Below, piece after piece: positions 19,901 to 63,623 of a stretch of 64,000 nucleotides of DNA. This stretch comes from a virus, in IMG/VR virus record IMGVR_UViG_3300032257_000004, positions 27,317-91,316 of that record. One strand, given 5' to 3'. Each line of letters opens with the position of its first letter. Positions within the stretch are counted from its first letter, which is position 1. The notes under the pieces are model-generated. The model saw nothing but the letters and a program-made list of their open reading frames with translations, was not told the origin of the DNA and did not search any database. The position numbers and the translations under genes are program-made.

Positions 19901-22900
19901 ACATGATGTGGTCGTTGTCACTAGGGGCTTGAAATTGAATGTCCCCGCCCTGAATACCTGACTTACCAACGTAGAGGGGCACGTTTACAACGGCTACGTT
20001 TGCCACCTGTACACGTAGTTTGTCTTGCCCGTCAGCTTGGAAATCCATTCTACCGGCACTATGGAAGTCGATACCGGTGTCAGTATCGTCCAGAGCGAAC
20101 AGACCATTCTTCGTATAGACCTCAGTTCCGTAAGCCGCGAACAACGCTGTGCCTTCGACGGAAATGCGGTAGTCATCATTACCGTTCCAGAACGGACCCG
20201 TTTGCGTAGTCCCCGTAGCCAGACGCATAATAGGGACAGTTTCCGACCCACCGCCTGCGAGAATGAACCCGCCTGCGTTGTGTACTGTGCCTCCACCCAT
20301 GTTGAGACCGTGGCCGGAAGTCAGAACAATATCGGTGTCACCGATGTTGAACGCCTCGTGACCCGATTCATCGTACATAATCAGAGTGCCAGCATCATTT
20401 ATAATCAGTCGGTTGTTACCGCTCGTGTCTTTGAACTCAAGCTGGCCTTGACGGAACATATTGAACCGAATGTTGCCCTCGTGGTCCCGCATCGACAGCA
20501 TCCCGTCGTTGCCAAGCTGGCCGATAAAGGCGCTGTAGGAACCATCAGTCTTGGGTTTGAATTCGACTTCACCACCAACACTGGTATTCTTTCCACTGAT
20601 CGTGTGACGCCAGTAGGCAATGTCGTTTGCGTTACCGCTAGTGTCTGCGACGTTGGTGTCAATGTTATTGGTGAAACGGTTGCCGTGACCGACATAGCTT
20701 CCAGAACCACCTGCAATAAGGATTGCGTTGTTGACCGTATTATCGCCGTTAGCATCGCCAATGAATTGATTGTGATCGACAATCGTATGATCGGCATCTA
20801 CATAAAGATGTGTGACATTGCCAGTTTTGCCTGAAGGGATAGACTCGGTGACGAAGGTGTTACCAATGATGATACCTTCTTCAGTGTAGGCTGGGTCACC
20901 GTCATTGATGACGTTCAGACCAATGAAGGCTTGACCATTAAAGCTGGCTTCGACCGTTGCATCATTCCAGTAAGAGAAGCTGTTGCTATCTACGTGGAAC
21001 TGAGAATAACCATCGATCTGCATTGCCATAGATGCAGCGTTAATATGGTTATGGTGAACAACCAGTGAAGGCTGCGTAGTACCGGTCTTGGCCGTGGCGG
21101 TGATACCGATACGAGCGCGCACAATATTGGAATGACTGATATACTGACCTTCAGGGAAACCGAAGATGTTGACACCAATATTGCAATCACTGGCCGTCAA
21201 ATGGTCGATGTGGCCTTCAAGGCTTTGACCGTGTGAATTATCATCGGCGTCGATCTGAGTCGTGATGTCGATGGCCGTACCATCGTAGTAAACAGGTGAG
21301 CCGTGAGTTGCATCAGCGTTCGAACCAATGTACCGGATAGATTTCAAGTCGTAGTAAGCTACGTTCTTGAGCATGATACCTTTTTTGAAGTAGTTGCCGA
21401 CACCAGTACCGTAAATATTAATGTGTTCAGCGTAGACTCTGGACTCGTTAACGAACGCAATATTACGGTCGAACCAAATGGCTTCGCCCGTGTCGTCGTT
21501 ATTATAGATTTCATCCCCAGCTACAGGGCTATAAACACCTACGCTGCGAGGGTCGTAGTCTTCATTCGTTACGAAGAAGCGGCTAGTTGCTCCGTCATAG
21601 CTGGTGATCTGTGCAGTCCAAGTTCTATTAGCCCACGTCCCGTCAGTCGAAGTGAAGATCACATCATCTGCGCTGAAGTTACCGGTTTCATTGGTGACAG
21701 AGATACCAGTTTGGAGATCGGGCCAAGCGACCTTGATAGCCTCGTCCCAAACACCACTGGTAGTGATGGAGAAATCTTTGAATGCGGCACCAGCGTTGTA
21801 ACCGTTTACGTTATAAGGCTCCAAACAGAAGGCGGCGTCGGCTACACTGCCTTCGAACAGGAAGGTTGTGGAGTTCTGGCCCGAACCATAGAGCATGATA
21901 CTTTCGGGCAAGAAGACTACATCGTCAAACCGGTAGGTGCCGGGTGGAGCAAAGATAACCGCTTTAGCGCCGCTAGACGTGTAGAGTTCGTCCGCCACAT
22001 CCCTTATTCGGGCCAGCATGTCCTCGTAGTTGCCTTGGTTGACTGTAGCCGAATTCTCGGGCCGAATATCAAAGTCCCACAGGCTATAGACGCGAGAGAT
22101 TTCGGATACAGATTTGAAGAACATCCGGCCCGGAGACGACACGTCCTCAACCATCGGAACGTTTCTGCGGGAACCGGAATAGTTCAGCGGCGTATCAGTA
22201 AGGTGGGTAAACGTGTTCTCTTCACCTGCCGAACCGGTGGTGTCCCCACTATCTTCCAAGATGAACGAACCGCTACCTGTAGCGAGCAAGACGATTTCTC
22301 GACCTAGTTTGTCGGAGTCGGCAGCTTCAATGTCGCCTTCCGCATCGTAGACTTTCACTCTGAAATAGTGAGTTCCAGCGGTATAAGTAGCCTCGGTATC
22401 AGTTTGGTCGTAAACGTACTGGCTGAATGTATCGGAGTCTGGCACCGAAGTGTCGTTGTGATCAGACTTAGAGACGTTTTTAATTTGGTAGTAATCCGTC
22501 GCAGGCTCACCGAAGAGTGAAGCACCGGGGAAAGTATTAACATCGAACTGGTTGGCCGTCGCCCCAGCAGTCGCAACCTTGGTGTAATCACGATTGGCAA
22601 TCTTGGTAGCGTTTGCTGTCCACCACGCGTCGTTCTGACCATCAGGGTCGCTGGTGGTGTGCCAGATTTCGATAGTAATTGTGGCCGGGGGAGTATTGGA
22701 TTGAATCAGTACATCATATACGGCGTGGCGCGCGGCAACGCGAACGTCGTCAATGTCGTCATCCAAAGTAATCGTATAGAAGTCGAGGTTGTTGTTCAGC
22801 TTGCCAGTGATCTGCTTGGTGCTATAGTTCTGTTTCGAGAAAATCTGGCTGCGCAGATATTCGGGAATCTCGCCAGAACGAAGAATAATGTTTCCGACGT

Positions 22901-25900
22901 CATCCATAAGGGTGAACGAACGCATAGTAACGTGGCCGTTTTTGTCGACCGAGAACGGAGCTCCAGCGCCGAGGAAGCTACCTGCCCAAATGCGCCAGTC
23001 GTACGAAGAGTTGCCTGACAGGCCAACGAACGAATTCGCGTCAGAGCCAATCTTGATTTCACTTTCAGCGAAGATATGCGTACCAGTGATGGAATCTGCA
23101 ACAATGCCCTGACCGTCAATACGGGTTCCGCCTGCGGGAGTCCAGTCGGACAAGACCGTTTGGTTGGCAGTGGCCTTGGAGACCATCAGCCTGCGGAATT
23201 TGGCAACTTCGGTATTCTCAAGAGATAGACCATTTAATAGAATTCGCATCCGGACAGCGGTGGCCGGGACAGTAAACACTCCTCCCAGCCGATCCATGTT
23301 AGCCAGAGTGCCATCCGTGCTAGCAGTGGTGTTCGAATACGTGAAGTCCTCGCCTGACAGATATCCGCCCGCGTATGCGCTGTAGAATTGTACAACTAAT
23401 TGCGCGTTTCCGGCGTTGGTAGCCTGCGCATAAACGGAGGCTTCATACTTTTCGCCTGCCGTAACGTCGTAGTCGTGTCGGTTGGCTCCGGAAGCGTCGC
23501 CCGGTCCTGCATTGTCCGTTTGGTCAGCGGCGGTGGAAGTCAGGACCAAAGCCTGTTCACTGCCGAACGCAGTACCCTCGGCTGCGGATTCGAACGTCTT
23601 GGTTACGTTCGCATTGGTGCCAATTTTGATGCTGGAAAAGTCTGCGGAGAAATCCGAGTTTTGAACCAAATTACGGCTAAAGCCCACGTTCATAGCGGCG
23701 GCGGAGACTGTACCGGCTACCAAAAGGTTGCCATCTATTTCAACATTAGTGGCGTCCATCCGAATCTTGGTGCCAGTAACTTGGAATACTGGAAGATTGG
23801 CAGCGGCGTTGGAATTCCAAATGGAGAAGTCGTCGGCTTGGAAACCGATTTCCGACATCAGGGCACCGTCGCCCCCGGCGCGCGAAGTCAACCAAGCGCG
23901 AGCAACGGTATTCGCATTTCCGGTCCCGGCCTGAGTCTGGAGCATAATGGTGGCGGTGGATGTTCCGCCATCGAACAGAGCCTCTTGGAAGATATCTGCC
24001 CGAGCCTTGGTCTCAGAATAGGACAAATCGCCGTACGCCACAAACGCGGATTTGTGGATTCGCCACTTGTCGTTGGTAGTTTGGTCGGAAGAATCAGCTG
24101 GGGCGATCCACCATACAGTGGGATCAGCAGTCCCCCAAGCCACGGCTCCGGCATCGGTCGACCCCTCCAGATCGAACACGAACGTGTACATTTTGCCGGT
24201 TTCGTAATAGGCGTTTTCGTTTTTATTGACGGCATGCAACCATGCACCACCGTTGTTGGTGCCGGAGCGCCAGTTGAATTCCGGGGTGACGGGAATATCC
24301 GCTTGTCCACTCACGAATTCCATCACGACTACTGCGTACCGAACCCTCTCCCAGTCGACAGCGGCTTGTTGATCGGCGGAAAGGGCCCAACCAGCGTAGA
24401 TTTGTCCAGTGTCGGCAGTGGCGGTGATCTCGATCCCATTATTGGCCAGAGCAGTAGTTACTGACGCCTTGGACGTGGCGTCTCCAGAACCGGTTCCGTC
24501 GTTCCACTGCCAGACAAGATCGGGGTGAACGTCTGTCAGGTTCGGCAAGACAGCGCCTGCTTCAACAGTATCTAGGCGATACGCGAGTGCAGTATCGCCA
24601 TTTTGGCGACCCAAAATCTCTTGCGCGATTCGGGCGTATACAGAACCTCCGGCATCGGCGGTGTCACCAGCATCGCCCACCAGAATTTCGGTGTTGGAAA
24701 CTCTTTGCTCAAGCGGAGCGTTTACTCCGACCAGCGAGCGCATCGAATCGATTCCGCCAGAGACGCTTTCCTTTGTCCCAACGGCCAGCAGCACGTCTGT
24801 ATTGGCCGGAGTAAACGCAACCCCCGCCGTGTTGGTGTTGTCGTGAGCGTACCATTGGTCATTAACGTCGTCGTAGGTTACTACACCCACGTATGCATTG
24901 CCGGTGGCCGGGTCAGTCAGACCCCCGCCAAATCTCGAACTCCAATCGGAATTGGAGTACATGATATAGAAGCGCTCGCCCCGTGGAACAGTCGAACCCT
25001 CCCATGGGGTGAGGATGTTGAAGGGAGTGTGGAAAATCTGGCCATTAGTACCAGTTTCGTCGATTCGGCCAAGAGTCGGGTGGTTGAACCAACCATCGCC
25101 GCCATCGTCTACACCATTCGATACTCGAATCTCTCCGTCGTCCGCCCCAGTAGTGAGTTCGTTCTTGTGGAAATAAGCGTCGCCATTTACACCGCCAGAG
25201 ATGCCGGGGGGAATGACGGATTTACCGATTTCCATCACCCGGTTGATTTCGTCTTGGACCGTACCTGCAAGTTTGGTCAGAGTGATTGAACCATCGGGAA
25301 TGTCGTCGATCGGTTCCAGAGTGGTAATGCTGCCCTCGTCCGAAGCCACCAGCCCATCAGTTCCGAATTCGTCGTACACCGCGTACTTGTAGTAATAGGT
25401 CGTGTCGGCGCTGGCGCTAAACGAGGGTTTGCCGGGGCCCTTAAAAACGACATTTCCATCGGTGGTAGAAACGCTGGGGGAAGTGTCCGCCCAAACAATC
25501 ATTCCCCGGAAGTCGGGGTCGTTAGGCTCCAGATAATCGAAGTAAATTTCGCGATACGACGCCGTAATGGTTACGTCTGGAAGGGCGGGTTTAGTATTCG
25601 TTACAGTCAGCGATTCGGTTCGACCAACTTCGTTGTACCGATTTACATACGACACTTCCACTTCGAAAGATCGAAGGGGTGCGCCATTGTTGTCGTCGAA
25701 ATTGTTTTCGTACGTATAAGTATAGAAGTTGTCAGTAACGAATTCTCGACGGAGCAGATTTCCGTTTCCATCCCGGACGTCCACTTGGTAGTGTTGAAAC
25801 AGAGGGTCCGTGGAGGACGAATCCCCACCGAAGCGTTCGGCACCGGGGCTCTGCGCCATTCCGGAGGCTCTGCGCCACGTGAACACCGCGTCCTTGCCCT

Positions 25901-28172
25901 CGAATTCCGTGTTGTTGCCCTGTTCGAACAACTCCAGACCGCTGACCGATGGGGCGGGAATAGGGGAGGTAGATTCGACCGTGATCGTGCCCTCGACCGG
26001 AGTGGAGGACAAAACTCCAAACACGTTCCGGGCGTACACCCGAACGGTATAGGTGTCCGCGTATGGGAAATCGATACGAGCGCTATTGGAGACCGTAGTT
26101 CCCAACTCTTTCCACTCGGGATCGCCAGTTCGGCTGTAAGTGATGAAATACCGGTCAATGTACCGATCGTCGGACTGCGACCAGCCAATGTCGATATAGT
26201 CGTCCACCGCTTGGGGGCTAATTACTTCGATCTGGCGCGAAAGCGAAATAGTGGACGGAGGGTCCATCTTGTTCATCGCGGGGAGTTTGGTGTAACTCTC
26301 GACCGGGAAGTCGATGCCCTCTTCTACCGACGCGAATTTGTCGTTGTTGTATTCGAGAGCAGTGACTTCGTAGCACTTGACTTCGTTGACTTCAACTTCG
26401 CGGATGGACAGAACCCGGTACTGCGGTAGAGTAACGTCCGTGCCAAGAATAGCGAAAGCCTCACCAACAAGCGGAGTTCTACTAGGAGAGCCCAACATCA
26501 CTACGGTGTCAGTCGAAGTAGTTCCCGGATTGGTCAGATTCACCAGTTCTGGAGCGCCCGATGCGTCGAGTACAGAGATTTGGTAAGTTTCGCCAGCGTC
26601 GAAATCGTAAGCTTTGTCCAGCGTCAGAGTGGAACCCGAAACGCCTGCAATCCGGCCAGCGTTGCGAACACCTAGTCTTTCAGGGTCCGACAAACGGATG
26701 ACCGAACCGGGACGGACGTTCAGGTGGTCAGCGTGGCAGACGTACGAGACCGTTTCGGTTTCGTTGAGTTCGGAATAAATGATCCAGCGAGCGGCCCGGT
26801 GAGCCATTGCTCTGGAGGTACAACCGTGGAGAACAACGTCTTTGCGACGATAACCCAGCGTGGCGATGCCGACACGGTCCTCTACTACTTCGACTGCGGG
26901 CCGACCAAAATTGTTGGGGTCGGTCCAAGTGACGAACACAGCAGTGTGGCGCGCTTTTTTAGCCGATTTCTGGTATCGGAACATCCCGCCGATAACGCGG
27001 GTCTGGTTGACTTCGATCTCCGGAGATTTCGGGCTATCCTGAATCAGAGTGACCGAACCCGAACCCCAGTACATCATACCACGGAAGGTGGAGGCCAGAA
27101 CGTTCAGAACTTCCCAAGCTTCCCTCTGCTCCTGAATTACGCCTTTAAACGTAAACCGGGGTTCAGTTCCGCCTTGTCCATCGTCCACGTTTCCGTCGCA
27201 ATAGACGCCGATATTGTACACGGCCCATTTGTCGACATTCGATATACCCAGTTCTTCGCCCAAGCCGTATCGATCGTGAGTCGCTAGATCGAACCAAATC
27301 CACGCGGGGTTGGAAGTGATGGCCTCGATGAAAGTACCATCCCATATGCCGGTATAAACCCGAGTCGCAGCGTCGTAGTTGCTTGGGACCTTAACTTTCC
27401 GGCCCTTCAGGCGATACGCGCGCTTTGGTGGCTGCGAACCAAACTGCTGCGCGTCAATTTCGATACCAATGAGGGCGGAATCCGGGTATGAAAACTTGGA
27501 CTCGTTGATGGCAGTGTACGAAGACCATATCGTGCCATTCTGGATGTCGATGGTCTCCGAATCCGGAGTAATACGTTGGACTTCGAGCGTGTAAGTGTCC
27601 GTCCCCGGAAGTTCCAAATAGTAGGAGCGTTCGTAGGGGGATGTGGTTTTGCCGGATATCGTGACGGTCTGTTCGGTGATGACGGAGCCACCGGGATTGG
27701 TTTTCCAAATGAATTTAAGGGAAACCGTGGTGCCCGTGATAACTTGCTCTTCCTGCTTAACGTGCTGGAGACCGGTAACTTTAATTGCGAGACGCAGGGC
27801 GTCCATTGTCGATCCATCGATCGATCGAGTGACAGGAATCGCGGCTTTGACTTCAGCCCCAACCGCGATGGTAGCTTCGGCCTCAGAGAATCCCGGAATA
27901 GAGGTCTGATCGGGCAGACCCTCTCTAGTTACCCACCTGAAGCCTTGGAAGTTGTACGAATCGTCGGAATTCTGGAGCGGAACTTCATTCAAGTAAATAG
28001 ACTTGGCACCATCGACCAGACCGCCGATTTCGCCTTCCGACACAAGGTCGATAATCTTTGCTTTGGACGTTGACCGAAGAGTGTTCGGGGCCTCTCGGAC
28101 CCCACCCTCTCCGGTGCTGCCTTTGCCTTTGCGGCCAGTAAGTAAGTCGAGGTCTGGATATTGATCTCTCAC
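13980..28172 (-). CDS. giant tail tip protein: gpJ-like N-terminus, FN3-like region, beta-helix (depolymerase-like), fibre repeats, C-terminal S74 chaperone
   Basis: LRSTSKAKIIDLVSEGEIGGL (gpJ-like); VIFAPPGTYRF..LYGSG (pectate-lyase-like helix start); repeats HTHTIANVTGLQTALDGK and GNFTPGNYLPLAGGTMTG; SDRRVKGNIE. Confidence 0.9.
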   Translation of the reverse strand: MRDQYPDLDLLTGRKGKGSTGEGGVREAPNTLRSTSKAKIIDLVSEGEIGGLVDGAKSIYLNEVPLQNSDDSYNFQGFRWVTREGLPDQTSIPGFSEAEATIAVGAEVKAAIPVTRSIDGSTMDALRLAIKVTGLQHVKQEEQVITGTTVSLKFIWKTNPGGSVITEQTVTISGKTTSPYERSYYLELPGTDTYTLEVQRITPDSETIDIQNGTIWSSYTAINESKFSYPDSALIGIEIDAQQFGSQPPKRAYRLKGRKVKVPSNYDAATRVYTGIWDGTFIEAITSNPAWIWFDLATHDRYGLGEELGISNVDKWAVYNIGVYCDGNVDDGQGGTEPRFTFKGVIQEQREAWEVLNVLASTFRGMMYWGSGSVTLIQDSPKSPEIEVNQTRVIGGMFRYQKSAKKARHTAVFVTWTDPNNFGRPAVEVVEDRVGIATLGYRRKDVVLHGCTSRAMAHRAARWIIYSELNETETVSYVCHADHLNVRPGSVIRLSDPERLGVRNAGRIAGVSGSTLTLDKAYDFDAGETYQISVLDASGAPELVNLTNPGTTSTDTVVMLGSPSRTPLVGEAFAILGTDVTLPQYRVLSIREVEVNEVKCYEVTALEYNNDKFASVEEGIDFPVESYTKLPAMNKMDPPSTISLSRQIEVISPQAVDDYIDIGWSQSDDRYIDRYFITYSRTGDPEWKELGTTVSNSARIDFPYADTYTVRVYARNVFGVLSSTPVEGTITVESTSPIPAPSVSGLELFEQGNNTEFEGKDAVFTWRRASGMAQSPGAERFGGDSSSTDPLFQHYQVDVRDGNGNLLRREFVTDNFYTYTYENNFDDNNGAPLRSFEVEVSYVNRYNEVGRTESLTVTNTKPALPDVTITASYREIYFDYLEPNDPDFRGMIVWADTSPSVSTTDGNVVFKGPGKPSFSASADTTYYYKYAVYDEFGTDGLVASDEGSITTLEPIDDIPDGSITLTKLAGTVQDEINRVMEIGKSVIPPGISGGVNGDAYFHKNELTTGADDGEIRVSNGVDDGGDGWFNHPTLGRIDETGTNGQIFHTPFNILTPWEGSTVPRGERFYIMYSNSDWSSRFGGGLTDPATGNAYVGVVTYDDVNDQWYAHDNTNTAGVAFTPANTDVLLAVGTKESVSGGIDSMRSLVGVNAPLEQRVSNTEILVGDAGDTADAGGSVYARIAQEILGRQNGDTALAYRLDTVEAGAVLPNLTDVHPDLVWQWNDGTGSGDATSKASVTTALANNGIEITATADTGQIYAGWALSADQQAAVDWERVRYAVVVMEFVSGQADIPVTPEFNWRSGTNNGGAWLHAVNKNENAYYETGKMYTFVFDLEGSTDAGAVAWGTADPTVWWIAPADSSDQTTNDKWRIHKSAFVAYGDLSYSETKARADIFQEALFDGGTSTATIMLQTQAGTGNANTVARAWLTSRAGGDGALMSEIGFQADDFSIWNSNAAANLPVFQVTGTKIRMDATNVEIDGNLLVAGTVSAAAMNVGFSRNLVQNSDFSADFSSIKIGTNANVTKTFESAAEGTAFGSEQALVLTSTAADQTDNAGPGDASGANRHDYDVTAGEKYEASVYAQATNAGNAQLVVQFYSAYAGGYLSGEDFTYSNTTASTDGTLANMDRLGGVFTVPATAVRMRILLNGLSLENTEVAKFRRLMVSKATANQTVLSDWTPAGGTRIDGQGIVADSITGTHIFAESEIKIGSDANSFVGLSGNSSYDWRIWAGSFLGAGAPFSVDKNGHVTMRSFTLMDDVGNIILRSGEIPEYLRSQIFSKQNYSTKQITGKLNNNLDFYTITLDDDIDDVRVAARHAVYDVLIQSNTPPATITIEIWHTTSDPDGQNDAWWTANATKIANRDYTKVATAGATANQFDVNTFPGASLFGEPATDYYQIKNVSKSDHNDTSVPDSDTFSQYVYDQTDTEATYTAGTHYFRVKVYDAEGDIEAADSDKLGREIVLLATGSGSFILEDSGDTTGSAGEENTFTHLTDTPLNYSGSRRNVPMVEDVSSPGRMFFKSVSEISRVYSLWDFDIRPENSATVNQGNYEDMLARIRDVADELYTSSGAKAVIFAPPGTYRFDDVVFLPESIMLYGSGQNSTTFLFEGSVADAAFCLEPYNVNGYNAGAAFKDFSITTSGVWDEAIKVAWPDLQTGISVTNETGNFSADDVIFTSTDGTWANRTWTAQITSYDGATSRFFVTNEDYDPRSVGVYSPVAGDEIYNNDDTGEAIWFDRNIAFVNESRVYAEHINIYGTGVGNYFKKGIMLKNVAYYDLKSIRYIGSNADATHGSPVYYDGTAIDITTQIDADDNSHGQSLEGHIDHLTASDCNIGVNIFGFPEGQYISHSNIVRARIGITATAKTGTTQPSLVVHHNHINAASMAMQIDGYSQFHVDSNSFSYWNDATVEASFNGQAFIGLNVINDGDPAYTEEGIIIGNTFVTESIPSGKTGNVTHLYVDADHTIVDHNQFIGDANGDNTVNNAILIAGGSGSYVGHGNRFTNNIDTNVADTSGNANDIAYWRHTISGKNTSVGGEVEFKPKTDGSYSAFIGQLGNDGMLSMRDHEGNIRFNMFRQGQLEFKDTSGNNRLIINDAGTLIMYDESGHEAFNIGDTDIVLTSGHGLNMGGGTVHNAGGFILAGGGSETVPIMRLATGTTQTGPFWNGNDDYRISVEGTALFAAYGTEVYTKNGLFALDDTDTGIDFHSAGRMDFQADGQDKLRVQVANVAVVNVPLYVGKSGIQGGDIQFQAPSDNDHIMYLRHSNNGQFAVQSYDAGDVDFEFDYHIIANRSSSVNLYYNNVDVAATHSGGLEALTSFVVRGTSSQLYEDNLQLGPGIFAVRDSDTQGRLIADGGTALTWTDAGGTLTGAWNVTSSLTVGGTAVSVAGHTHTIANVTGLQTALDGKVALAGDTMTGTLVAPTVNLTSTSSLQYSGANRIKFGASLTQFVNSSIYAARISGAGAQIQLQGPSGAYVGYLNHAANGQIAIQSYDGSAIETMANFYQGGGVDLFYDTAIKLSTTSAGGTLTGTWNATTALTVGGTAVSLAGHAHAISDVTGLQTALDGKAASSHTHTIANVTGLQTALDGKSDTGHTHSYLPLAGGIMSGVLDMDGQRIDLDADNDTYIYSSADDTINFYAGTVENMIINANVVRARYAGVDRLITAIDGTTVNSIGTYGARIILENQSGTRTWGLVSPIGADQFVLQDIITAKNYLAANKNGSTAIYYDGGIRAETTSAGGTLTGTWNATTNLQIGGASVATQTWVSSQGYTTGGPFLPLTGGTLTGRLVVDGGTSNGLSGDGGGVYIQVNDQDFCVWDSTDGVTNIIWRDHSAGLLYLGTADAIVTLRSDFDLNGNRIVGMGTSTWHTDDDTDGRLQFVLNGDNLYAGAASGAGHEFYAHDGTADHIRLDPANFRIYPSGADSNTYWERHVADAQRWIAGGNVNLSIDANRVYLQYQGNVIAQTYSDRLQLMETASVGGKIRFEGHGTNTDWTIVAQPDPANQLAFTNLLGSGASYLMFDDDIQTTYLYGGNSVRIAANSAGVVGYGAWTFDSNVTCNGQINVANHLNSRMLGMIWADMSSDAGGYGVFGGNLYANWDGAAVSYRTSLTHASVGYGALRFGYGNAQVATFSGATTAGATVTPTWNTLWHSGNFTPGNYLPLTGGTMTGVLTASAGAKIVVQNGTDGGSTRGLFMWTSADTNWGIYMAQSGSGKALNGGYAPTSLDGQTYHHIRFRVANNNSQGFIWENGGDTTLMSLSGSSGVLRAKSEIYANATNLVWHAGNFTPGNYLPLAGGTLTGALNATSGISLFYTTTGQTIEAATGQIATQLQIYQPTSGTDALMCFHVAGNYAAYFGLDGSRNDFVVGGWSMGTTSYKIFHEGNFTPGNYLPLAGGTMTGALINTNSNSRFAGLSIGADTDIYLYEGSPNDFVVRTGASGSNKYFTFTGGGDFLFEGHIRMSNADPYIKRTVNDGYLVLSGGSGWTETSSTVVLRGISTGTNPGGIEFNGGNGGAGEAIFNTFARVKINGSTSIDHTIWHTDTNGADRTYYISGGQTYFKAPNGLFYYRRGDDTDGIVLDAANAAIYPNWSSDSNTYLRWGGADIIDLVTGGYINFTVDANRAYLKYQSTTVAQTVADALKLMRTGSLGGKLSIQGFTSQDDWTLAAQGSGSNLLSLVNATTTKIAWQALTAGPVQIFSGDNAVANITSASNGAVIGGANRSMQVGEYGASYTGLMTTGGVYRLVFDSTLADTTTYLTGQNGVRILANNGDHTDRFDVAPDIQVHRVDDVEIGMWQPSALTVRRDYAGTTQVLVQNAATGGAGQAIIYGGSIYIQHIAYQSGSAYMQSNASSALYMGGTGAATIYLRQNGATRLTINSTTSTFSTDLTVDGGARIGTTVGQYGALLTARGASAGDAFEWGHGNTAGYGSVLGYESGTGRPFIGFSAGHGTSTASSYRTFGLKGSVLRGNLAGGFEFCSVDTTTADNQTATVRATINTSGLIIPTGKYVISDYLWAAVNNATGFNLATAHQITATCNSTDVMLLSTSGITALPVGSTGGSIILEGESGQSDWLWAQNNSQCTIGNETDLCILMRENSGNSDVLLYFNNLKKFQTTTSGITVTGTVNETSDRRVKGNIEDITNGMDFIRSLNPRKYFNFLTQSYEEGFVAQEIEKVGPWLVQNPTEPDDYMTMNYKGLIAPMVKAIQEKDDEIQDLKSEVDQLKAQIAMIKKAVGLD

Positions 28173-52939: not shown

Positions 52940-52977
52940 GGAGAGTATTCGGTCAACAGAATGTATTGAACCCCATC

Positions 52978-53006
52978 TTGATGTACCTATCCACCTATGG
53001 TATGGT
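52978..53006 (+). promoter_or_regulatory. tmRNA promoter
   Basis: TTGATG-17-TATGGT. Confidence 0.6.
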
Positions 53007-53012
53007 GATCTC

Positions 53013-53075
53013 GCTTTTTATGAGGCTCCTAGCTATTGCCACTGGACGCGGGTGCAATTCCCGCCGCCTCCACCA
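53013..53075 (+). ncRNA. ssrA: two-piece tmRNA, acceptor piece (5' end approximate)
   Basis: T arm GCGGG-TGCAATT-CCCGC, then CGCCTCC-ACCA; pairs with GGGGGCG at 53255, including the G3:U70 Ala determinant. Confidence 0.9.
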
Positions 53076-53254
53076 TGAATGCACCTAGAAGGGGTTTAGT
53101 CGGCTAAGGCTAACCGCTTCGAACATACTAAGCCGTCCGGTGTTAGTCCACTGGAAAACAAAGCGGCGGGACGCTAATCCCGCAGATGCCACTCCCCCGG
53201 CTGGGTGGCCTTCCCGTTGGGGATGTAGCTTAAGTAGTACGGTGCGTTCTTGAT

Positions 53255-53428
53255 GGGGGCGAATTAGGTATCGACAGGGTAAGATCGAAGAGAAGAGAAA
53301 GCCGGGTGAGGCCCGCTATAGGCTCAAATTCAATAAATGTCAACGATAACGACATTGTGGAGCAGGAGCAGCTTCTCGCTGCGTAACGTTTCCGGGGCAA
53401 GGGGGTGCCTAGCAACAGAAACCCCCAC
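53255..53428 (+). ncRNA. ssrA: two-piece tmRNA, coding piece; tag (A)VNDNDIVEQEQLLAA
   Basis: GGGGGCGAA...TCGAC 5' end; tag frame 53339-53386 after ATAAAT; GCAACAGAA 3' motif. Confidence 0.9.
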
Positions 53429-53460
53429 TTAATAGCAATCGGTGTAGCGCTGCACCGCTA

Positions 53461-53815: not shown

Positions 53816-55480
53816 TTAGTCGCGGAGGAAGGACTCCACGATATTGTAGGCGCTGGCATCAAAGCCTGAGACCTGCAGATTAAGCGGGTCATCCGGCAGT
53901 TGAGCAGTACCCGCCCGCGAACCGGCCAGTTGCATTTCGACCGCCTTGCAGTTCGGGTTCCGCTTGCGACGGTATTCGTCGCACATCTGGAAGGTATGCC
54001 GCCATCCGGCCCATGATTCGGAGTCGGTGAGCATTACCACCGCATCAAAATCGTTCTTGGCCTTAAGCGCCACATCGAATGGGATAGCACAGTTAGTGCC
54101 TCCGCCCGACCTTGCTTGCATCACAATGCTGTCGATCGTGGTTCGCTTCGTGATCGGGATGTAGTTGTTCGCGGAGGTATCGAAGCCAATGATATGGACA
54201 TTCGACTCCATTCGAACAAAGACGTAGGCCATCAGTGCCGCGATTTCAGCGGGGTTGACCACTGCGCCCGACCAGCCCATAGAACCTGAGGTGTCGACCG
54301 CCAGAAGGGTTGGCTTGGTGATCTGGTGCCCCTCCGAGTATTTGATCGACAAATCAAAGGCGTCGGAGAGGGCCTCGACCACACGGTTAGAGGGTTTCCA
54401 CTCTCCCGACCCACGCAGCCCCCGGCCACTCGCGTACGTCCGAGCAGCATAGAGCAGGTGGAAGGGGTGAATGTTACTCCTCCGGATAGCCTCTTCATTG
54501 TTCAGGCGTTCAACGACGAATTTCTCCGCCACCGAATTGAAGTCGATAACTCCGCGTTTGGTCATGTTGCCCAAATTGCGGACCATCGCCATCATCGGCA
54601 TATGGGGAAGCAGTGCGTCCCATACCATCGGGTTTTTCAGGTCCTCAGTCGGCACCGCTTCGCGTGGAAGCCGGTGTTGCCGAATAAGGTCCAGTTTGGT
54701 CCCGATATTGTCGCTGATATGCAGAGTATTCGCCGCCGCCAACCGATCGGGCAGGCGCGCGGCCTGCTCCGGCTCGCCTTTCGGGGAGATATCGGCGTAG
54801 AGCGCGTTCTTGTCCGCTCCACCTACTGCCCACGAAATCAACGCCCGCGCTTGCACGGTGTCGGCAACATCCTCGTACTCGAAGGATGGACGGCCTTTTT
54901 TGGCCACGCCCGGTCTGGCAATACGAAGGACGTCGCGGAACGACATACCTTCGCGCTGGAAGTATTTGATGAACTGGTTTTCCAGATCGCCAACACTTCG
55001 TGTGGTGAACCATCGCGACACTTGCCGTTGCAGGCCCGACCCGCCGATCCCGCGCATCGTTTTCAGATACTGCAGGAATTTGAACAGTTGGGTGCCGGTT
55101 CGAAGCAGTGTCGGGATTTTCGACATTGCGTACGACCGTTCGTCGTCGGTGCCGTTCGAGCATGCCTGGGCGAATACATAGAGGGCTGCATCCAACTTGT
55201 GGACCCGGCCATTCGTCAGCGCTTCGTCGAGATAGTCGACGGTCGCCCGGTGCATCGCTTGAACGGCTCGGAGTGACGACTCCGCCGATTCGATGGTGAC
55301 ATCCCGCTCGTTCGCGTAGTAAGTCCCGCCTTCAGTACCGATGGTAACGAAGCGGCGCATTCGATCGAAATCCGACTGTTGGAACGCAAACGCGCCCGCG
55401 TCGTTTTTCACCATATTTTTTCCCGGCACCGCTTGGCTCTGCGGCGTCGAGTTCTGATTTACATGGTCGGTGATTCTCAT
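53816..55480 (-). CDS. rsr: Ro60/Rsr RNA-binding protein (TROVE plus vWA)
   Basis: TPQSQ..MVKNDAGAFAF..RRFVTIGTEGGTYY; MPMMAMVRNLGNMT; IHPF; MIDAS LAVDTSGSM; GGGTNC; LTDSESW. Confidence 0.95.
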   Translation of the reverse strand: MRITDHVNQNSTPQSQAVPGKNMVKNDAGAFAFQQSDFDRMRRFVTIGTEGGTYYANERDVTIESAESSLRAVQAMHRATVDYLDEALTNGRVHKLDAALYVFAQACSNGTDDERSYAMSKIPTLLRTGTQLFKFLQYLKTMRGIGGSGLQRQVSRWFTTRSVGDLENQFIKYFQREGMSFRDVLRIARPGVAKKGRPSFEYEDVADTVQARALISWAVGGADKNALYADISPKGEPEQAARLPDRLAAANTLHISDNIGTKLDLIRQHRLPREAVPTEDLKNPMVWDALLPHMPMMAMVRNLGNMTKRGVIDFNSVAEKFVVERLNNEEAIRRSNIHPFHLLYAARTYASGRGLRGSGEWKPSNRVVEALSDAFDLSIKYSEGHQITKPTLLAVDTSGSMGWSGAVVNPAEIAALMAYVFVRMESNVHIIGFDTSANNYIPITKRTTIDSIVMQARSGGGTNCAIPFDVALKAKNDFDAVVMLTDSESWAGWRHTFQMCDEYRRKRNPNCKAVEMQLAGSRAGTAQLPDDPLNLQVSGFDASAYNIVESFLRD

Positions 55481-55627
55481 GACCATACTCCCTTTCTTTC
55501 CCCAATACAAATGAGGCCCGAACAGCTTGTTTGCCATTCGGGCCTCTCGGAAAAGCCGGACTGTCGCGGGGAAACACAACGCTGTTCGGCTTTTATACAG
55601 CGACGGATTAGATCGCTGTTGTTGAGA

Positions 55628-58185: not shown

Positions 58186-58470
58186 ATGGCTCGTGAATTT
58201 AAAAAAGCACCATTCGCGGAGTTTGAAGACGCCTCCGTTCGGACCGGCATGAACATGGCCGACCTTTGTGAATCGATGGGGTATTCCCCCGGCGCGTACA
58301 GTGGGTGGCAGAAAGACGACTGCATTCCGTACGTGGCTTCAGTCGCTCTGCGCACCATAGTGGCCGAACACCTGAAGGTGGCGATGATCTACGTTCCAGA
58401 GGCCGACTTCGAGACGGTGCGGAAAATTGTTATCGGGTGCGGGGGGACTTTCCGCACGGTACGGATTTGA
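58186..58470 (+). CDS. putative HTH DNA-binding protein
   Basis: GMNMADLCESMGYSPGAYSGW resembles a Cro/XRE HTH. Confidence 0.55.
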   Translation: MAREFKKAPFAEFEDASVRTGMNMADLCESMGYSPGAYSGWQKDDCIPYVASVALRTIVAEHLKVAMIYVPEADFETVRKIVIGCGGTFRTVRI

Positions 58471-58545
58471 GAATATAGCTCAGCTGGACAGAGCAGCCGA
58501 CTTCTAATCGGCAGGTCGGGGGTTCGAATCCTCCTATTCTCGCCA
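58469..58545 (+). tRNA. tRNA-Arg (anticodon UCU)
   Basis: Cloverleaf: GAGAATA/TATTCTC acceptor, D arm, GCCGA-CTTCTAA-TCGGC, GTTCGAATC, encoded CCA. Confidence 0.95.
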
Positions 58546-59493: not shown

Positions 59494-59579
59494 CAACCCA
59501 ATTGCACCCAAATATTTCTGAGATATTTTAAAAAAGAAAAAAAGAAATATATTATACCCAACCCAATTGCAACCAATAT
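59494..59579. repeat. direct repeat CAACCCAATTGCA(C/A)CCAA(A)TAT flanking an A-rich tract
   Basis: Copies at 59494-59515 and 59559-59579. Confidence 0.7.
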
Positions 59580-59624: not shown

Positions 59625-59653
59625 TTGCGCGGGGGGCCGCGCTGTGCTACGAT
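59625..59653 (+). promoter_or_regulatory. promoter for the U-less RNA, -35 inside an inverted repeat
   Basis: TTGCGC-17-TACGAT with TG extension; inverted repeat 59609-59642. Confidence 0.7.
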
Positions 59654-59659
59654 TCGGGA

Positions 59660-60113
59660 GTCGGGCGGCGCAGCGCCCCCGGCCCCCGCCGGGGGGAGCC
59701 CCGGCCCCGCCCCCGGCCCCGCCGGAGGCGGGCGGAGAAAGGAGCAGAACGACGCCAGACCAGACGGACCCCGCGAATCGCGGCGAGCCACCAGCACCCG
59801 GAGCCGAACCGAAGCCCGACCCCCCGCCGAGAGGCGGCAGGCAGAGCCCAAGGCAGACCGACCGGGGCCCCCCACGGGGGGAGGCAGACAAGGGAGAGAA
59901 CACAGCCGGAGACCCCCGGCGCGAGGCCCCGAGAGGGGCGGAGCGCAGGCAGGACCGGCGACCGAGGGAGACCGAACCGCCCCGAACCGAGAGGACGCGA
60001 GACAGCCACGCAGGCAGACCACCGCCCGAGCCGCGAAGCGCGAACACCGAAGGCAAGGCAGGCAAGGCCCCACGGGAAAGCAAAGCCGAAACGCCGCACC
60101 GACACGCGGCGTC
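59660..60113 (+). ncRNA. putative ~454-nt uridine-depleted structured RNA released by hammerhead 1
   Basis: Only one T (59778) in 59662-60111; bounded by a promoter and a ribozyme cleavage site. Confidence 0.65.
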
Positions 60114-60152
60114 CGCATGGGCGGGCCCCATGCGCTGACGAGGCATCCCGCC
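60085..60152 (+). ncRNA. hammerhead ribozyme, type II (HH1); cleavage after C60113
   Basis: GCC-GAAA-CGCCGC/GCGGCG-TC-CGCATGGG/CCCATGCG-CTGACGA-GGC; GGCGGG (60120-60125) can pair with CCCGCC (60147-60152). Confidence 0.88.
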
Positions 60153-60180
60153 GAGCAGAACCACAACGAAGGACGACATC

Positions 60181-60678
60181 ATGTCGAATGCAACCGAAGC
60201 ACAAGGCGAGTGCACAAACGCCACCCCCGAAGCCGAGGCGCACGATCCGAAGCGCCCCATCCGGAACATCTCCGCGATGAAAACCCCGGCGCTCCGGAAG
60301 CGCCTGCAGGACGCGGGCTTGGACGTGGCCCCACGGGCCAATCGCGCCCGCCTGATTGAGGCGGCACGGGCCGCTGGCCTTTGGCGCTACGATGGCGACC
60401 AAGTACCGGCCAAGTACAAGGCCAAGTACGGACGCACCCAATCGTGCGACGACGACGTGGCCACGTCGCTCAAGGACGCAGTCACCGGAGCCGATGGCTC
60501 CTGCGATCTGGACGCCGTCCGGAACGTGGCGATCGCGAATGACATCGATCCCAAGCGCTGGGGCCACTTGAACGTGGGCATGCAGCGCATGAATCTCGGG
60601 AATGTCCTGAGGGCGATGGTCAAGCGCGGTGAGTACGTCATCGTGGGCACTTCGGAGTGGAATCCGGAAGCCGCCTAG
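60181..60678 (+). CDS. first early gene after HH1; hypothetical
   Basis: ACAACGAAGGA RBS; paralogous domain in 10783-11232. Confidence 0.8.
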   Translation: MSNATEAQGECTNATPEAEAHDPKRPIRNISAMKTPALRKRLQDAGLDVAPRANRARLIEAARAAGLWRYDGDQVPAKYKAKYGRTQSCDDDVATSLKDAVTGADGSCDLDAVRNVAIANDIDPKRWGHLNVGMQRMNLGNVLRAMVKRGEYVIVGTSEWNPEAA

Positions 60679-60741
60679 GCCAACCACGGAGAGCGGGGGC
60701 GAGAGCCCCCGCGATCCAATCAACCAACGAAGGAGAATACG

Positions 60742-60966
60742 ATGCAGATGATGATTGTTGTTGACGCCGCAATACACGGCGACGTCGAGATGGGGCGATC
60801 TTTTGCCGCCCAACTCGGATGGAAACCAGAACTCCAGCAGGAAGTGAATCCGAAGATCGGATACTTCCAGCTGGTAGTGCCTGAATACATCGCAGACCAC
60901 ATAGCCGAATTCGGATGGATAGAGTTTAGCACTCCGAAATTCCGAATCGAGATCACGTGGCCCTAG
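60742..60966 (+). CDS. hypothetical early protein
   Basis: CAACGAAGGAGAA RBS. Confidence 0.7.
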   Translation: MQMMIVVDAAIHGDVEMGRSFAAQLGWKPELQQEVNPKIGYFQLVVPEYIADHIAEFGWIEFSTPKFRIEITWP

Positions 60967-61035
60967 ATCGAAACCAAGGCGAGCGCGCGAATGCGCTCGC
61001 TGCGGTCTGCAGGTTGGTCCTGCACTGACGAGATC
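60966..61035 (+). ncRNA. hammerhead ribozyme, type II (HH2); cleavage after C61007
   Basis: GATC-GAAA-CC..GGCGAGCGC/GCGCTCGCT..GG-TC-TGCAGG/CCTGCA-CTGACGA-GATC. Confidence 0.88.
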
Positions 61036-61054
61036 AGTAACGAAGGAGAATGAA

Positions 61055-61300
61055 ATGAATAGAATCCAAATAGAGCGCGATAGCGCCGAATGGGATCGGA
61101 CGCTCGCCTTTCAGGAGGCGTTCATTCAGTGGTTCGGCATCGCCGGATTTGCGCTGATTTTTATTGGCGGAGCCGGAGCGATCATCTTCGGAAGCAATCA
61201 CATGGTCGGCCTGACTATCTGGTCGATGTGCGTTGCCTTCGTTGGCGTGGCGATGTTGATGCTGACGCCTTATTGGCGCACGATTGCGGAGAGCGACTAA
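61055..61300 (+). CDS. small membrane protein
   Basis: Two hydrophobic segments; AACGAAGGAGAA RBS. Confidence 0.7.
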   Translation: MNRIQIERDSAEWDRTLAFQEAFIQWFGIAGFALIFIGGAGAIIFGSNHMVGLTIWSMCVAFVGVAMLMLTPYWRTIAESD

Positions 61301-61452: not shown

Positions 61453-61774
61453 CTACATGCTTTCCCTTTAGGTCGCCGGTCAACCTCTCCGGCTGTGTTC
61501 ACCTGTATTTGTGTGTGGTTGGCTAGAATGCATATCGATTCATGAGCGGAATTTGTGTGAAGACGAATGGAACCAATCCCGGTTTATAGGCGGACCTTTG
61601 TTTTTCTTTAGAATAGATGTCGATTCTTAGGCGAATCTTTTTTCTTTTTTCTGGAATCAACGTCGGTTCTTAAGCGGGCGTTGGAATGCGTTCGGAATCG
61701 GCCTTGACGCGCAGCCCCCGCCGTGGTATGGTACGGATGCGGCACTCCGCCGCGAACAACGAAGGACGAATACA

Positions 61775-62266
61775 ATGAACGTGAACCAATTCATCGAGCG
61801 GATTCTGAATCGGACGTACGATCCACAGAACACGCGGGTTGCATTCGGGGCGGCGGTATCGCCGGAATTCCTGATCCCAGCGGAAGACGTGGGACCGGAA
61901 CTTATGAAGGTGGACGGCGAGGATGTCCTGATTCTCGTGAGCGGAATACGGGCTCGCGGGTTCGACACGCTAGTCGGCGAAATCCGGACCGAGTTCTTGG
62001 CAGAGACGGCCAAAGAACGAGACGAGCCCCGGACCGAATACTTCATCGGTTATTCTGGGCCCCGCGACGAGGCGGACAACTTCCTAGGTCTGATGGGAGT
62101 GGAACTCGTAGAGGTCGAACAGGAGTTAGACGACGGGTTCGTTGCGCTGGCCCTCCTACCCGGTTCGATGGCGGAACTACTGAAAGCCAACGGCGAACTG
62201 GAATTCAGATCAGGCGAATGCACCCTGAACGTAGACATGCCAGACCACTGGCCAGCGGGGCAGTAG
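61775..62266 (+). CDS. acidic hypothetical early protein
   Basis: Own promoter and RBS; terminator follows. Confidence 0.75.
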   Translation: MNVNQFIERILNRTYDPQNTRVAFGAAVSPEFLIPAEDVGPELMKVDGEDVLILVSGIRARGFDTLVGEIRTEFLAETAKERDEPRTEYFIGYSGPRDEADNFLGLMGVELVEVEQELDDGFVALALLPGSMAELLKANGELEFRSGECTLNVDMPDHWPAGQ

Positions 62267-62278
62267 AACACAGGGAGA

Positions 62279-62310
62279 GCGCGGGCTTCGGTCCGCGTTT
62301 TTTCTTTTTT
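62279..62310 (+). terminator. intrinsic terminator
   Basis: GCGCGGGC-TTCG-GTCCGCGT followed by a T tract. Confidence 0.85.
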
Positions 62311-62431
62311 GTGGAATAGGTATCGATTCTACGGCGAACCGGAACTAAGTCGGAATCGGGGTTGCGCGCAGCCCCCGTCTGTGGTACGGTACGGATGCGG
62401 CACGACGCCGCGAACAACGAAGGAAAACAGA

Positions 62432-62827
62432 ATGAAAACGAACCTAGAACTAGCGGCAGAGACCGCCTTCTGGTGCCAGAGCGACGAAGCCGTCGCACAG
62501 CGGACAGACGCGGAACAGACCGCGACCGAATTTCTTCTGGAAGAAATGGACCGAATCGTAAACGACCCGAAAAAAGGCGATTCGGTGGTGATTCGGATGA
62601 AGGGCGAATTCGAAACCGAGATCGCAATAGTCGACTCCAACCACCTTGAATTCCTGAAAACGGAATTTGTTAACAACGACCGATTCGAATTTGAACCCAA
62701 CCCAACCGAAGTGGAAGACAAAATCGGATTCACGATCAGAGAGGGGTTCTTTCACTTCCTCACCGACAAGGACGCGGAATCCACCGCAGAATACCTTACC
62801 TGGTGGGAAAACGGTTCGGACCTCTGA
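62432..62827 (+). CDS. acidic hypothetical early protein
   Basis: Start at the ATG after ACAACGAAGGA. Confidence 0.75.
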   Translation: MKTNLELAAETAFWCQSDEAVAQRTDAEQTATEFLLEEMDRIVNDPKKGDSVVIRMKGEFETEIAIVDSNHLEFLKTEFVNNDRFEFEPNPTEVEDKIGFTIREGFFHFLTDKDAESTAEYLTWWENGSDL

Positions 62828-62913
62828 ACCCGCCATGAACGGGGGTTGCGCGCAGCCCCCGCCTATGGTATGGTATTAGTGCGGCGGTTTGCCGCGAACG
62901 AAGGAGAACGAAA

Positions 62914-63138
62914 ATGGCCTATTCAATACGAATCAACGAGTGGCAACGGAAGTTGCTGGTGGAAGCCATCCAGAACACGCCCTTGGGGGCGATGCCGAAA
63001 ATCGCGGAGAGTGACAATTTCGGTCCCTGCCCCCCGGACGCCGAGGCACAGGAAGCTTGGACCTTGGTTCAGATGTTGGAAGGTCTCCCCGCGCTGGAAG
63101 CGGAGAGCCCCGGCATCCTGAACCTACTCTGCGAGTAG
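62914..63138 (+). CDS. hypothetical early protein
   Basis: Own promoter and RBS. Confidence 0.7.
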   Translation: MAYSIRINEWQRKLLVEAIQNTPLGAMPKIAESDNFGPCPPDAEAQEAWTLVQMLEGLPALEAESPGILNLLCE

Positions 63139-63220
63139 AAGCGGACCGGAACGGGGGTTGCGCTGTCGCAGCCCCCGTGGTACGATTTGGGACTGACAGA
63201 CACAACGAAGGAAAAACGGA

Positions 63221-63532
63221 ATGTCGATTTACTACGTATTCGTGGGGACGAAGATCACCCGGAAATTGGTAACAGAGGCGACACTGGGAACGGACGCGGA
63301 GATATTCGTCCGAGAGGAGGGCGGAAAAGAATTCGCACTCGTGGTGGACGGCAATTACCTTTGGATTCACGACACGCCAGAGCGGACCACTGCGGCGAAA
63401 TACGGTCGAAACGACCCGACACCATGCCTCGAATGGCTGGAGGATAGGTTCGACGTCGAGATTTTCGACGAATACGACCCAAGATTCGAAAACCACCTCG
63501 AAGGAACCGACATCACGGTGTTGGAATTTTAG
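63221..63532 (+). CDS. hypothetical early protein
   Basis: Own promoter and RBS. Confidence 0.7.
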   Translation: MSIYYVFVGTKITRKLVTEATLGTDAEIFVREEGGKEFALVVDGNYLWIHDTPERTTAAKYGRNDPTPCLEWLEDRFDVEIFDEYDPRFENHLEGTDITVLEF

Positions 63533-63623
63533 CGGAACCAACCCGGAACGGGGGTTGCGCTGTCGCAGCCCCCGTGGTATGGTACTAGTGCGGCAAGAGA
63601 CCGCGTAACGAAGGAGAATTGAA

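Follow-up and report, generated by a model that had tools for sequence, protein, structure and literature searches.

Type II hammerhead ribozymes around the first early genes of an uncultured tailed phage and their probable role in transcript punctuation

The first two early genes of an uncultured 91-kb tailed phage, apparently lytic in lifestyle, are bracketed by two sequences that, on structural and comparative grounds, are genuine type II hammerhead ribozymes. The phage is represented by a 91,316-bp IMG/VR virus record (IMGVR_UViG_3300032257_000004) with a 127-bp direct terminal repeat. The window, by which we mean the whole 64,000-nucleotide stretch analyzed here, comprises bases 27317-91316 of that record, and coordinates refer to it unless a related locus is named. 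We call the two ribozymes HH1 and HH2. They lie 814 nt apart on the coding strand, between stop codon and ribosome-binding site (RBS), around two small open reading frames (ORFs), ORF1 and ORF2, at the head of an early region that consists of a run of small plus-strand ORFs (Table 1). Judging from the motifs, their conservation, and their surroundings, we think it probable that they are active and that they punctuate and insulate the first early operon in a promoter-independent manner.

Identity and conservation of HH1 and HH2

Both sequences contain the complete hammerhead core, C3-U4-G5-A6-N7-G8-A9, G12-A13-A14, and U16.1 followed by an H17 that is not G. Three helices meet at this core in each, with the standard pairs G10.1-C11.1, A15.1-U16.1, and 1.1-2.1 adjoining it. 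By the descriptor, stems II, III, and I comprise 3, 7, and 8 bp in HH1 and 4, 3+, and 6 bp in HH2, and loops close stems I and III while stem II is open, which is the topology of the type II permutation. The initial annotation had placed both ribozymes, with full cores, at these coordinates, and sequence, descriptors, and covariance modeling all agree with it. Its description of the stems as fully paired needs one correction: stem III of HH2 is interrupted by a 2x2 internal loop in which A60976 and A60977 lie opposite G61002 and C61003.

How specific are these matches? A strict type II descriptor applied to both strands of the 91,316-bp genome returned HH1 and HH2 only, as did a relaxed descriptor covering types I, II, and III. 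In 300 dinucleotide shuffles, the descriptor found 0.017 matches per genome, none of them as strong as HH2. A covariance model, R2, was built solely from five hammerheads of distant phage loci (alignment A6); when run on the genome, it gave only two hits, HH2 with 48.7 bits (E 2.5e-13) and HH1 with 43.7 bits (E 1.2e-11). No further ribozyme was found in the 91-kb genome with the relaxed descriptor, two covariance models, and Rfam. The Rfam type II model RF02276 (Hammerhead_II), whose gathering score is 37, recognizes HH1 with 41.6 bits, and Rfam gives no match to HH2 even at E<=10, so that an Rfam scan, proposed in the initial annotation as a check, vouches for the first ribozyme and passes over the second. 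The core of HH2 is nonetheless wholly canonical by reading (CUGACGA, GAAA, A15.1-U16.1, C17, and G10.1-C11.1). The minimum-energy fold of HH2 is exactly the hammerhead junction (z -2.9), and that of HH1 without its 3' tail is also the hammerhead.

We found no close relative among INPHARED phages or in single-protein scans of IMG/VR, and a profile search across 185,579 genomes of bacteria and archaea revealed no relatives of ORF1. A profile scan of IMG/VR yielded distant homologs of the ORF1 C-terminal domain only, and a profile scan of metagenome contigs provided two usable loci, L061 and L062, whose ORF1 proteins are 69% and 64% identical to that of the window, respectively. The synteny comparison therefore comprises the window, L061, and L062; contigs of 57-91 kb encoding P0002, P0004, and P0005 were left out of it.

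Both ribozymes are present at equivalent places in L061 and L062, and R2 matches both pairs of orthologs. Across the six copies, N7 (C, U, or A) is the sole core position that varies, which is the pattern expected of a hammerhead. Stem I of HH1 has undergone three double compensatory changes (C-G to A-U, A-U to G-C, and U-A to C-G), while HH2 shows one in stem II and one in stem I, both from A-U to G-C. In an alignment of 14 hammerheads, 93.7% of pair cells are standard, compared with 30-40% after a shift of the partners by 1-3 columns. Changes on both sides occur in 10 of 16 pairs, and the covariation score was reached by 0 of 500 shuffles; this alignment was fitted to the model and is biased in that direction, but comparison of the orthologs by eye agrees with it. 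Because each ribozyme has its own orthologs in L061 and L062, with compensatory changes in the stems, the sequences indicate that HH1 and HH2 are two separately maintained ribozymes rather than a recent duplication. The initial annotation had already taken them for selected structures of separate standing.

The arrangement around the ribozymes is conserved as well. The order stop codon, ribozyme, RBS is kept on the coding strand in all three genomes, with the stop codon overlapping stem II. The gene between the ribozymes is less constant. ORF2 has a homolog in L061, whereas in L062 its slot is occupied by an unrelated Cys-rich 71-aa ORF (2783-2998), the flanking RNA elements (the hairpin after ORF1 and HH2) being retained.

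Predicted transcript punctuation and competing explanations

What would two such ribozymes do at the head of an early region? When a hammerhead cuts, the RNA upstream of the site acquires a 2',3'-cyclic phosphate end and the RNA downstream of it a 5'-OH end. Read from the motifs, the RNA would fold co-transcriptionally into three-way junctions and cut itself after C60113 and C61007, converting one primary transcript into three RNAs. RNA 1 would be a structured leader of ~450 nt, nearly devoid of U, whose 3' end is formed by the stem III hairpin and the GUC bearing a 2',3'-cyclic phosphate; HH1 would thus additionally serve as the 3'-end maker of this leader. RNA 2 would be an 894-nt ORF1-ORF2 mRNA with its 5'-OH on the 8-bp stem I hairpin of HH1 and the stem III hairpin of HH2 at its 3' end. 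RNA 3, the message for ORF3, would begin with a 5'-OH on a 6-bp stem I hairpin located 14 nt before the RBS. Each 5' or 3' end created by cleavage would carry a terminal hairpin. Since cleavage would make stem II, with its 3-4 bp, intermolecular, this helix would be expected to melt and thereby uncouple the RBS from upstream structure.

The initial annotation had assigned two ORFs to the 894-nt segment 60114-61007, and both are there (60181-60678 and 60742-60966). They are the first two ORFs behind the leader, so the ribozymes do flank the first two early genes, with an RBS after each ribozyme. The predicted excised segment measures 890 and 878 nt in the two relatives. Protein-independent excision of this ~0.9-kb two-gene RNA, another element of the initial proposal, is what hammerhead chemistry would produce, provided that the ribozymes are active.

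The neighboring genes suggest what such processing may achieve. Five one-gene cassettes downstream have their own promoters and begin, at the predicted 5' end, with a 5-bp GC hairpin followed by a few bases and a AACGAAGGA RBS. The window contains ten of these boxes where 0.8 would be expected, of which eight precede ORFs between 60165 and 63615. An RBS after each ribozyme had been pointed out before; the boxes are present, but they precede eight early ORFs and are not specific to the ribozymes. The ribozyme products would copy the layout of 5' hairpin, short spacer, AACGAAGGA, and ATG without a promoter. It is because the cuts would reproduce the layout of the neighbors that we propose promoter-independent punctuation and insulation as the function of the pair. 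Greater stability and equalized translation are the likely consequences. RNAs with 5'-OH ends resist 5'-monophosphate-dependent decay, and it is plausible that the terminal hairpins together with the 5'-OH would hinder such entry of RNase E here.

Several observations weigh against this interpretation. With its tail included, HH1 has an alternative fold that is 0.4 kcal/mol better than the hammerhead. A possible pseudoknot between CGGG of loop I (60122-25) and CCCG of the tail (60147-50), which lies beyond the scoring of the folding program, would tip the tailed RNA towards the hammerhead; however, it has 4 bp in the window and only 2 bp in L061 and L062. For HH2, a tertiary contact between loop I and the flank of stem II has no consistent partner in the three orthologs, and a conserved pseudoknot was rejected as a candidate since none could be found across them. 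Hammerheads without loop contacts are slow at physiological Mg2+ (PMC3088659). The close relatives compared are two, and in these a terminator-like hairpin after ORF1 could already part ORF1 from ORF2. The transcription start and the single primary transcript are themselves inferred. Lastly, RNase J degrades 5'-OH RNA in some bacteria, as in the case of glmS, and the direction of any effect on stability therefore depends on the host.

The hairpin after ORF1 has a free energy of -26.5 kcal/mol (z -5.8) in the window. A U-run follows it in L061 (1207-1240) and L062 (2727-2757), which makes it terminator-like there, whereas the copy in the window has no U-run. Stem III of HH2 is longer in the window by an extra GC-rich segment. 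This segment may compensate as a 3'-end hairpin of the ORF1-ORF2 RNA.

Could HH1 serve mainly the leader instead of the genes? Positions 59662-60111 contain one T in 450 nt, and U16.1 of HH1 is precisely where the T-poor run stops in the window, in L061 (314-618, U16.1 = 619), and in L062 (2103-2147, U16.1 = 2148). As the run ends at this nucleotide in three genomes, the 5' half of HH1 must obey the same no-U rule, and the predicted 5' cleavage product of HH1 is the U-free unit. The leader was compared over window 59662-60111, L061 314-618, and L062 1694-2147. Its central part is well conserved at the nucleotide level, while the ORF1 proteins are merely 64-69% identical. Differences between relatives include 1-nt indels and compensatory changes in hairpins, such as CCGCC/GGCGG to CCGUC/GACGG, and for this reason we regard the leader as a structured non-coding RNA. 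A coding function was considered and rejected, given that the leader has no possible start codon inside, nonsense-like translations in three frames, and the 1-nt indels. T-free runs beside distant ORF1-family genes (L040, L101, and L087) were also discarded as leader homologs; they are coding and specify histone-H1-like N-termini. At its contig start, upstream of the leader, L061 has a T-free tandem repeat (1-160) with a unit of ~16 nt (ACCAAGAAACCCAGAC).

These features fit an alternative in which HH1 mainly releases the U-free leader as a non-coding RNA with a cyclic-phosphate 3' end, HH2 is an unrelated boundary ribozyme, and effects on the mRNA are secondary. The exact end of the run at U16.1 in three genomes, the absence of any other U from the 5' half of HH1, the nucleotide conservation and compensatory hairpin changes of the leader core next to ORF1 proteins of 64-69% identity, and the occurrence of HH2-type ribozymes at gene boundaries of many unrelated phages all speak for it. 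Yet leader release does not exclude punctuation, because the same cut makes both ends, and the transcription start of the leader is again deduced from sequence. As the main account of the locus, we consider it unlikely. Upstream of the leader lie an AT-rich stretch and the putative promoter for the first early transcript, which resembles in form the promoters of the five downstream cassettes (e.g., TTGCGC...TACGAT near 63158-63186). This promoter falls below threshold in a consensus promoter scan, which lists TTTAAA-17-TATTAT at 59527-59555 instead.

A more elaborate scheme has the excised 894-nt RNA joined head to tail, either by host RtcB, as raised in the initial annotation, or by a hammerhead acting in reverse, into an exonuclease-proof circular two-gene mRNA. 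A 5'-OH together with a 2',3'-cyclic phosphate is the ligation substrate of RtcB, and these are the predicted ends. Moreover, the excised RNA would carry stem I, the CUGACGA strand, and the pseudoknot tail of HH1 at its 5' end and GAAA, stem III, and GUC of HH2 at its 3' end. Since complementary ribozyme halves are retained, a chimeric HH2/HH1 hammerhead is conceivable, and its stem II would consist of C-G, U-G, and G-C in L061 and L062. Predicted minimum-energy folds of the back-junction place the ends close together in the window and in L062. Finally, bacterial Ro60 genes are often linked to rtcB, and the phage does carry a TROVE/Ro60 gene, as had been stated. On the other side, the phage encodes no RtcB, and the scheme is speculative for that reason. 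The chimeric stem II has just two pairs in the window (C-G and U-G) and three, one of them a wobble, in the relatives; no end helix is conserved, each of the three genomes being predicted to pair its ends differently; and the segment contains a terminator-like hairpin in the relatives. Perreault et al. searched for circles and splice products derived from phage hammerhead clusters, without success (PMC3088659). Thus, with the ligase missing from the phage, a poor chimeric hammerhead, and a negative published search, circularization is very improbable. The same very low likelihood attaches to its extension, in which circular phage mRNA made by RtcB or by a reverse chimeric hammerhead is accompanied by an HH1-released U-free RNA that feeds a Ro60/Y-RNA system. 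A spliced leader-ORF3 product was rejected as well, its chimeric stem II being only 1 bp.

The least probable explanation is that HH1 and HH2 are inactive or selfish remnants, mobile modules travelling with gene cassettes and without a role in expression. In its favor, numerous unrelated phages share an almost identical HH2-type consensus, possibly through horizontal transfer; HH2 revealed no tertiary contact; and the genes beside such ribozymes are not constant (the exchange in L062; PMC3088659). Against it, core nucleotides are intact in all six copies with variation at N7 only, compensatory changes preserve the stems in genomes with proteins that have diverged by 30-36%, and the ribozymes keep their precise position between stop codon and RBS.

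Promoter-independent punctuation is therefore the explanation we favor, and the locus offers a compact test case for it, with two ribozymes and three defined predicted products. The neighboring genes provide an internal control, in that they obtain the same 5' hairpin and RBS layout from their own promoters. A contrast between wild type and core mutants could reveal whether ribozyme punctuation alters mRNA stability or translation. In addition, HH1 gives a precise predicted 3' end to the U-free leader, the unusual feature of the region.

Relation to known hammerheads and to neighboring genes

Natural hammerheads of type II were first reported in 2011 by Perreault et al. (PLoS Comput Biol; PMC3088659), who demonstrated cleavage, both in vitro and in vivo, for three clusters that flank prophage genes. 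Several features are common to those clusters and the pair described here: the hammerheads, of type II and, in the clusters, of other types as well, occupy narrow spaces between phage genes, share the strand of those genes, and enclose one or two small ORFs whose identity changes from case to case. For those clusters too, the proposed task was to divide a long phage transcript into gene-length mRNAs (PMC3088659). The gene-flanking arrangement and the concept of transcript processing were thus already published in 2011, which the initial annotation had missed. Unlike those clusters, HH1 also terminates a conserved near-U-free structured leader of ~450 nt, the predicted products mirror the 5' hairpin and common RBS of promoter-driven cassettes, and the element resides in an uncultured, apparently lytic 91-kb phage. 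The distinctive aspect of the present locus is the exact coupling of HH1 to the conserved U-free structured leader. According to a 2019 review, what hammerheads do for bacteria and phages has yet to be proven (PMC6765202).

A second precedent comes from haloviruses HF1 and HF2, in which a hammerhead lies 13 nt before the first ORF of an early transcript, with its cleavage site no more than three nucleotides away from the 5' end mapped for that transcript (PMC3088659). The resemblance is clear: the ribozyme precedes, by a few nucleotides, the leading ORF of a polycistronic early message and determines where that mRNA starts. In contrast to HH1 and HH2, the HF1/HF2 element (HHphage) is a core variant in an archaeal virus, and no second ribozyme or U-free leader has been described for it.

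Two further comparisons concern the fate of the products. Viroid-like RNAs, retrozymes, and engineered combinations of ribozyme and RtcB also employ two ribozymes that leave 5'-OH and 2',3'-cyclic phosphate ends, and retrozyme circular RNAs, at 600-1000 nt, are similar in size to the segment predicted to be excised here (PMC5680766, PMC7229834). In those ribozyme-flanked circular RNAs, the flanking elements are copies of one motif or supply a designed end helix, whereas HH1 and HH2 differ in stem II, no end pairing is conserved, and the phage has no ligase gene. Synthetic ribozyme insulators offer another parallel. RiboJ, a hammerhead derived from a satellite RNA, removes the variable 5' leader and leaves a hairpin before the RBS. 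Translation is thereby made independent of upstream context, and HH1 and HH2 may be a natural counterpart.

How do the two ribozymes relate to the Rfam family? HH1 and its orthologs pass the gathering score of RF02276 and share its core, its topology, and the option of a pseudoknot between loop I and the 3' tail, whereas HH2 and its orthologs are unmatched and represent a shorter form without a visible pseudoknot. This form can be written GGYC-GAAAC...GGUC-UGC...GCA-CUGANGAG-RCC. In IMG/VR, we identified >120 exact matches to the short form (CGAAAC...GGUCUGC...GCACUGANGAG) among the matches listed, including loci L132-L211, often with two or three per contig. The RF02276 gathering score caught 7 of 24 short-form matches tested. 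Because the Rfam type II model misses most members of this short class, phage hammerheads are under-annotated.

Distant members of the ORF1 family provide a further link between gene and ribozyme. In four loci, a type II hammerhead lies 7-31 nt after the stop codon of an ORF1-family gene (L039 4270-4329, L041 4346-4414, L050 4238-4294, and L076 1098-1161). The sequences of these four distant phage lineages suggest a recurrent link between an early ORF1 gene family and ribozyme punctuation.

The proteins themselves offer few clues. ORF1 has no Pfam match and only weak structural leads in the Atlas (HeH/Rho_N-like), and for ORF1-3 as a group a search for function returned nothing in Pfam, one marginal PHROGs match, and the same weak HeH/Rho_N-like leads in the Atlas. 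A HeH/SAP/Rho_N-like N-terminal motif is possible in ORF1, with a C-terminal domain that is widespread in phages. Distant proteins of the family begin with Lys/Ala/Pro-rich, histone-H1-like repeats (L040 3700-3890, L101 25-136, and L087 1394-1487), and ORF1 of the window has the HeH/SAP/Rho_N-like stretch, itself assigned from weak leads, in place of these repeats. Owing to such N-termini, whether H1-like or HeH/SAP/Rho_N-like, the ORF1 family may bind nucleic acid.

Elsewhere, the window carries a tRNA and a permuted two-piece transfer-messenger RNA (tmRNA). The type of the tmRNA hints at an alphaproteobacterial host.

Table 1. Positions of the ribozymes, their orthologs, and other features. 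Numbering is that of the window unless L061 or L062 is named.
Feature	Position	Strand	Remarks
HH1, type II hammerhead	60084-60152	+	Rfam RF02276, descriptor, model R2
HH1 stem II	60085-87/60142-44
HH1 GAAA	60088-91
HH1 stem III	60091-60112
HH1 GUC	60111-13		predicted cut after C60113
HH1 stem I	60114-60134
HH1 CUGACGA	60135-41
HH1 3' tail	60145-52
HH1 orthologs	L061 596-651; L062 2124-2180		41 nt before ORF1; Rfam RF02276 46-47 bits
HH2, type II hammerhead	60966-61035	+	descriptor, shuffles, fold, model R2
HH2 stem II	60966-69/61032-35		GAUC/GAUC
HH2 GAAA	60970-73
HH2 extended stem III	60973-61006
HH2 GUC	61005-07		predicted cut after C61007
HH2 stem I	61008-61024		6 bp
HH2 CUGACGA	61025-31
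HH2 orthologs	L061 1481-1538; L062 2998-3055		directly after ORF2; missed by Rfam
Putative promoter, first early transcript	59625-59653	+	TTGCGC-17 nt-TACGAT, from sequence reading
Near-uridine-free structured leader	59662-60083	+	body of predicted HH1 5' cleavage product
RBS box AACGAAGGA before ORF1	60165-60173	+
ORF1	60181-60678	+	165 aa; homologs 64-74% identical, many distant
GC hairpin between ORF1 and ORF2	60688-60717	+
ORF2	60742-60966	+	74 aa; G of TAG stop is first base of HH2
RBS box AACGAAGGA before ORF3	61039-61047	+	3 nt after HH2 stem II
ORF3	61055-61300	+	81 aa, hydrophobic; directly behind HH2; conserved in L061 and L062
Five one-gene early cassettes	61704-63620	+	own promoters TTGCGC/TTGACG-17-TAYGGT/TACGAT; GCAGCCCCC spacer box
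4,730-aa ORF	13980-28172	-
Permuted two-piece tmRNA, alphaproteobacterial type	52974-53429
TROVE/Ro60 gene	53816-55579	-
tRNA	58469-58542

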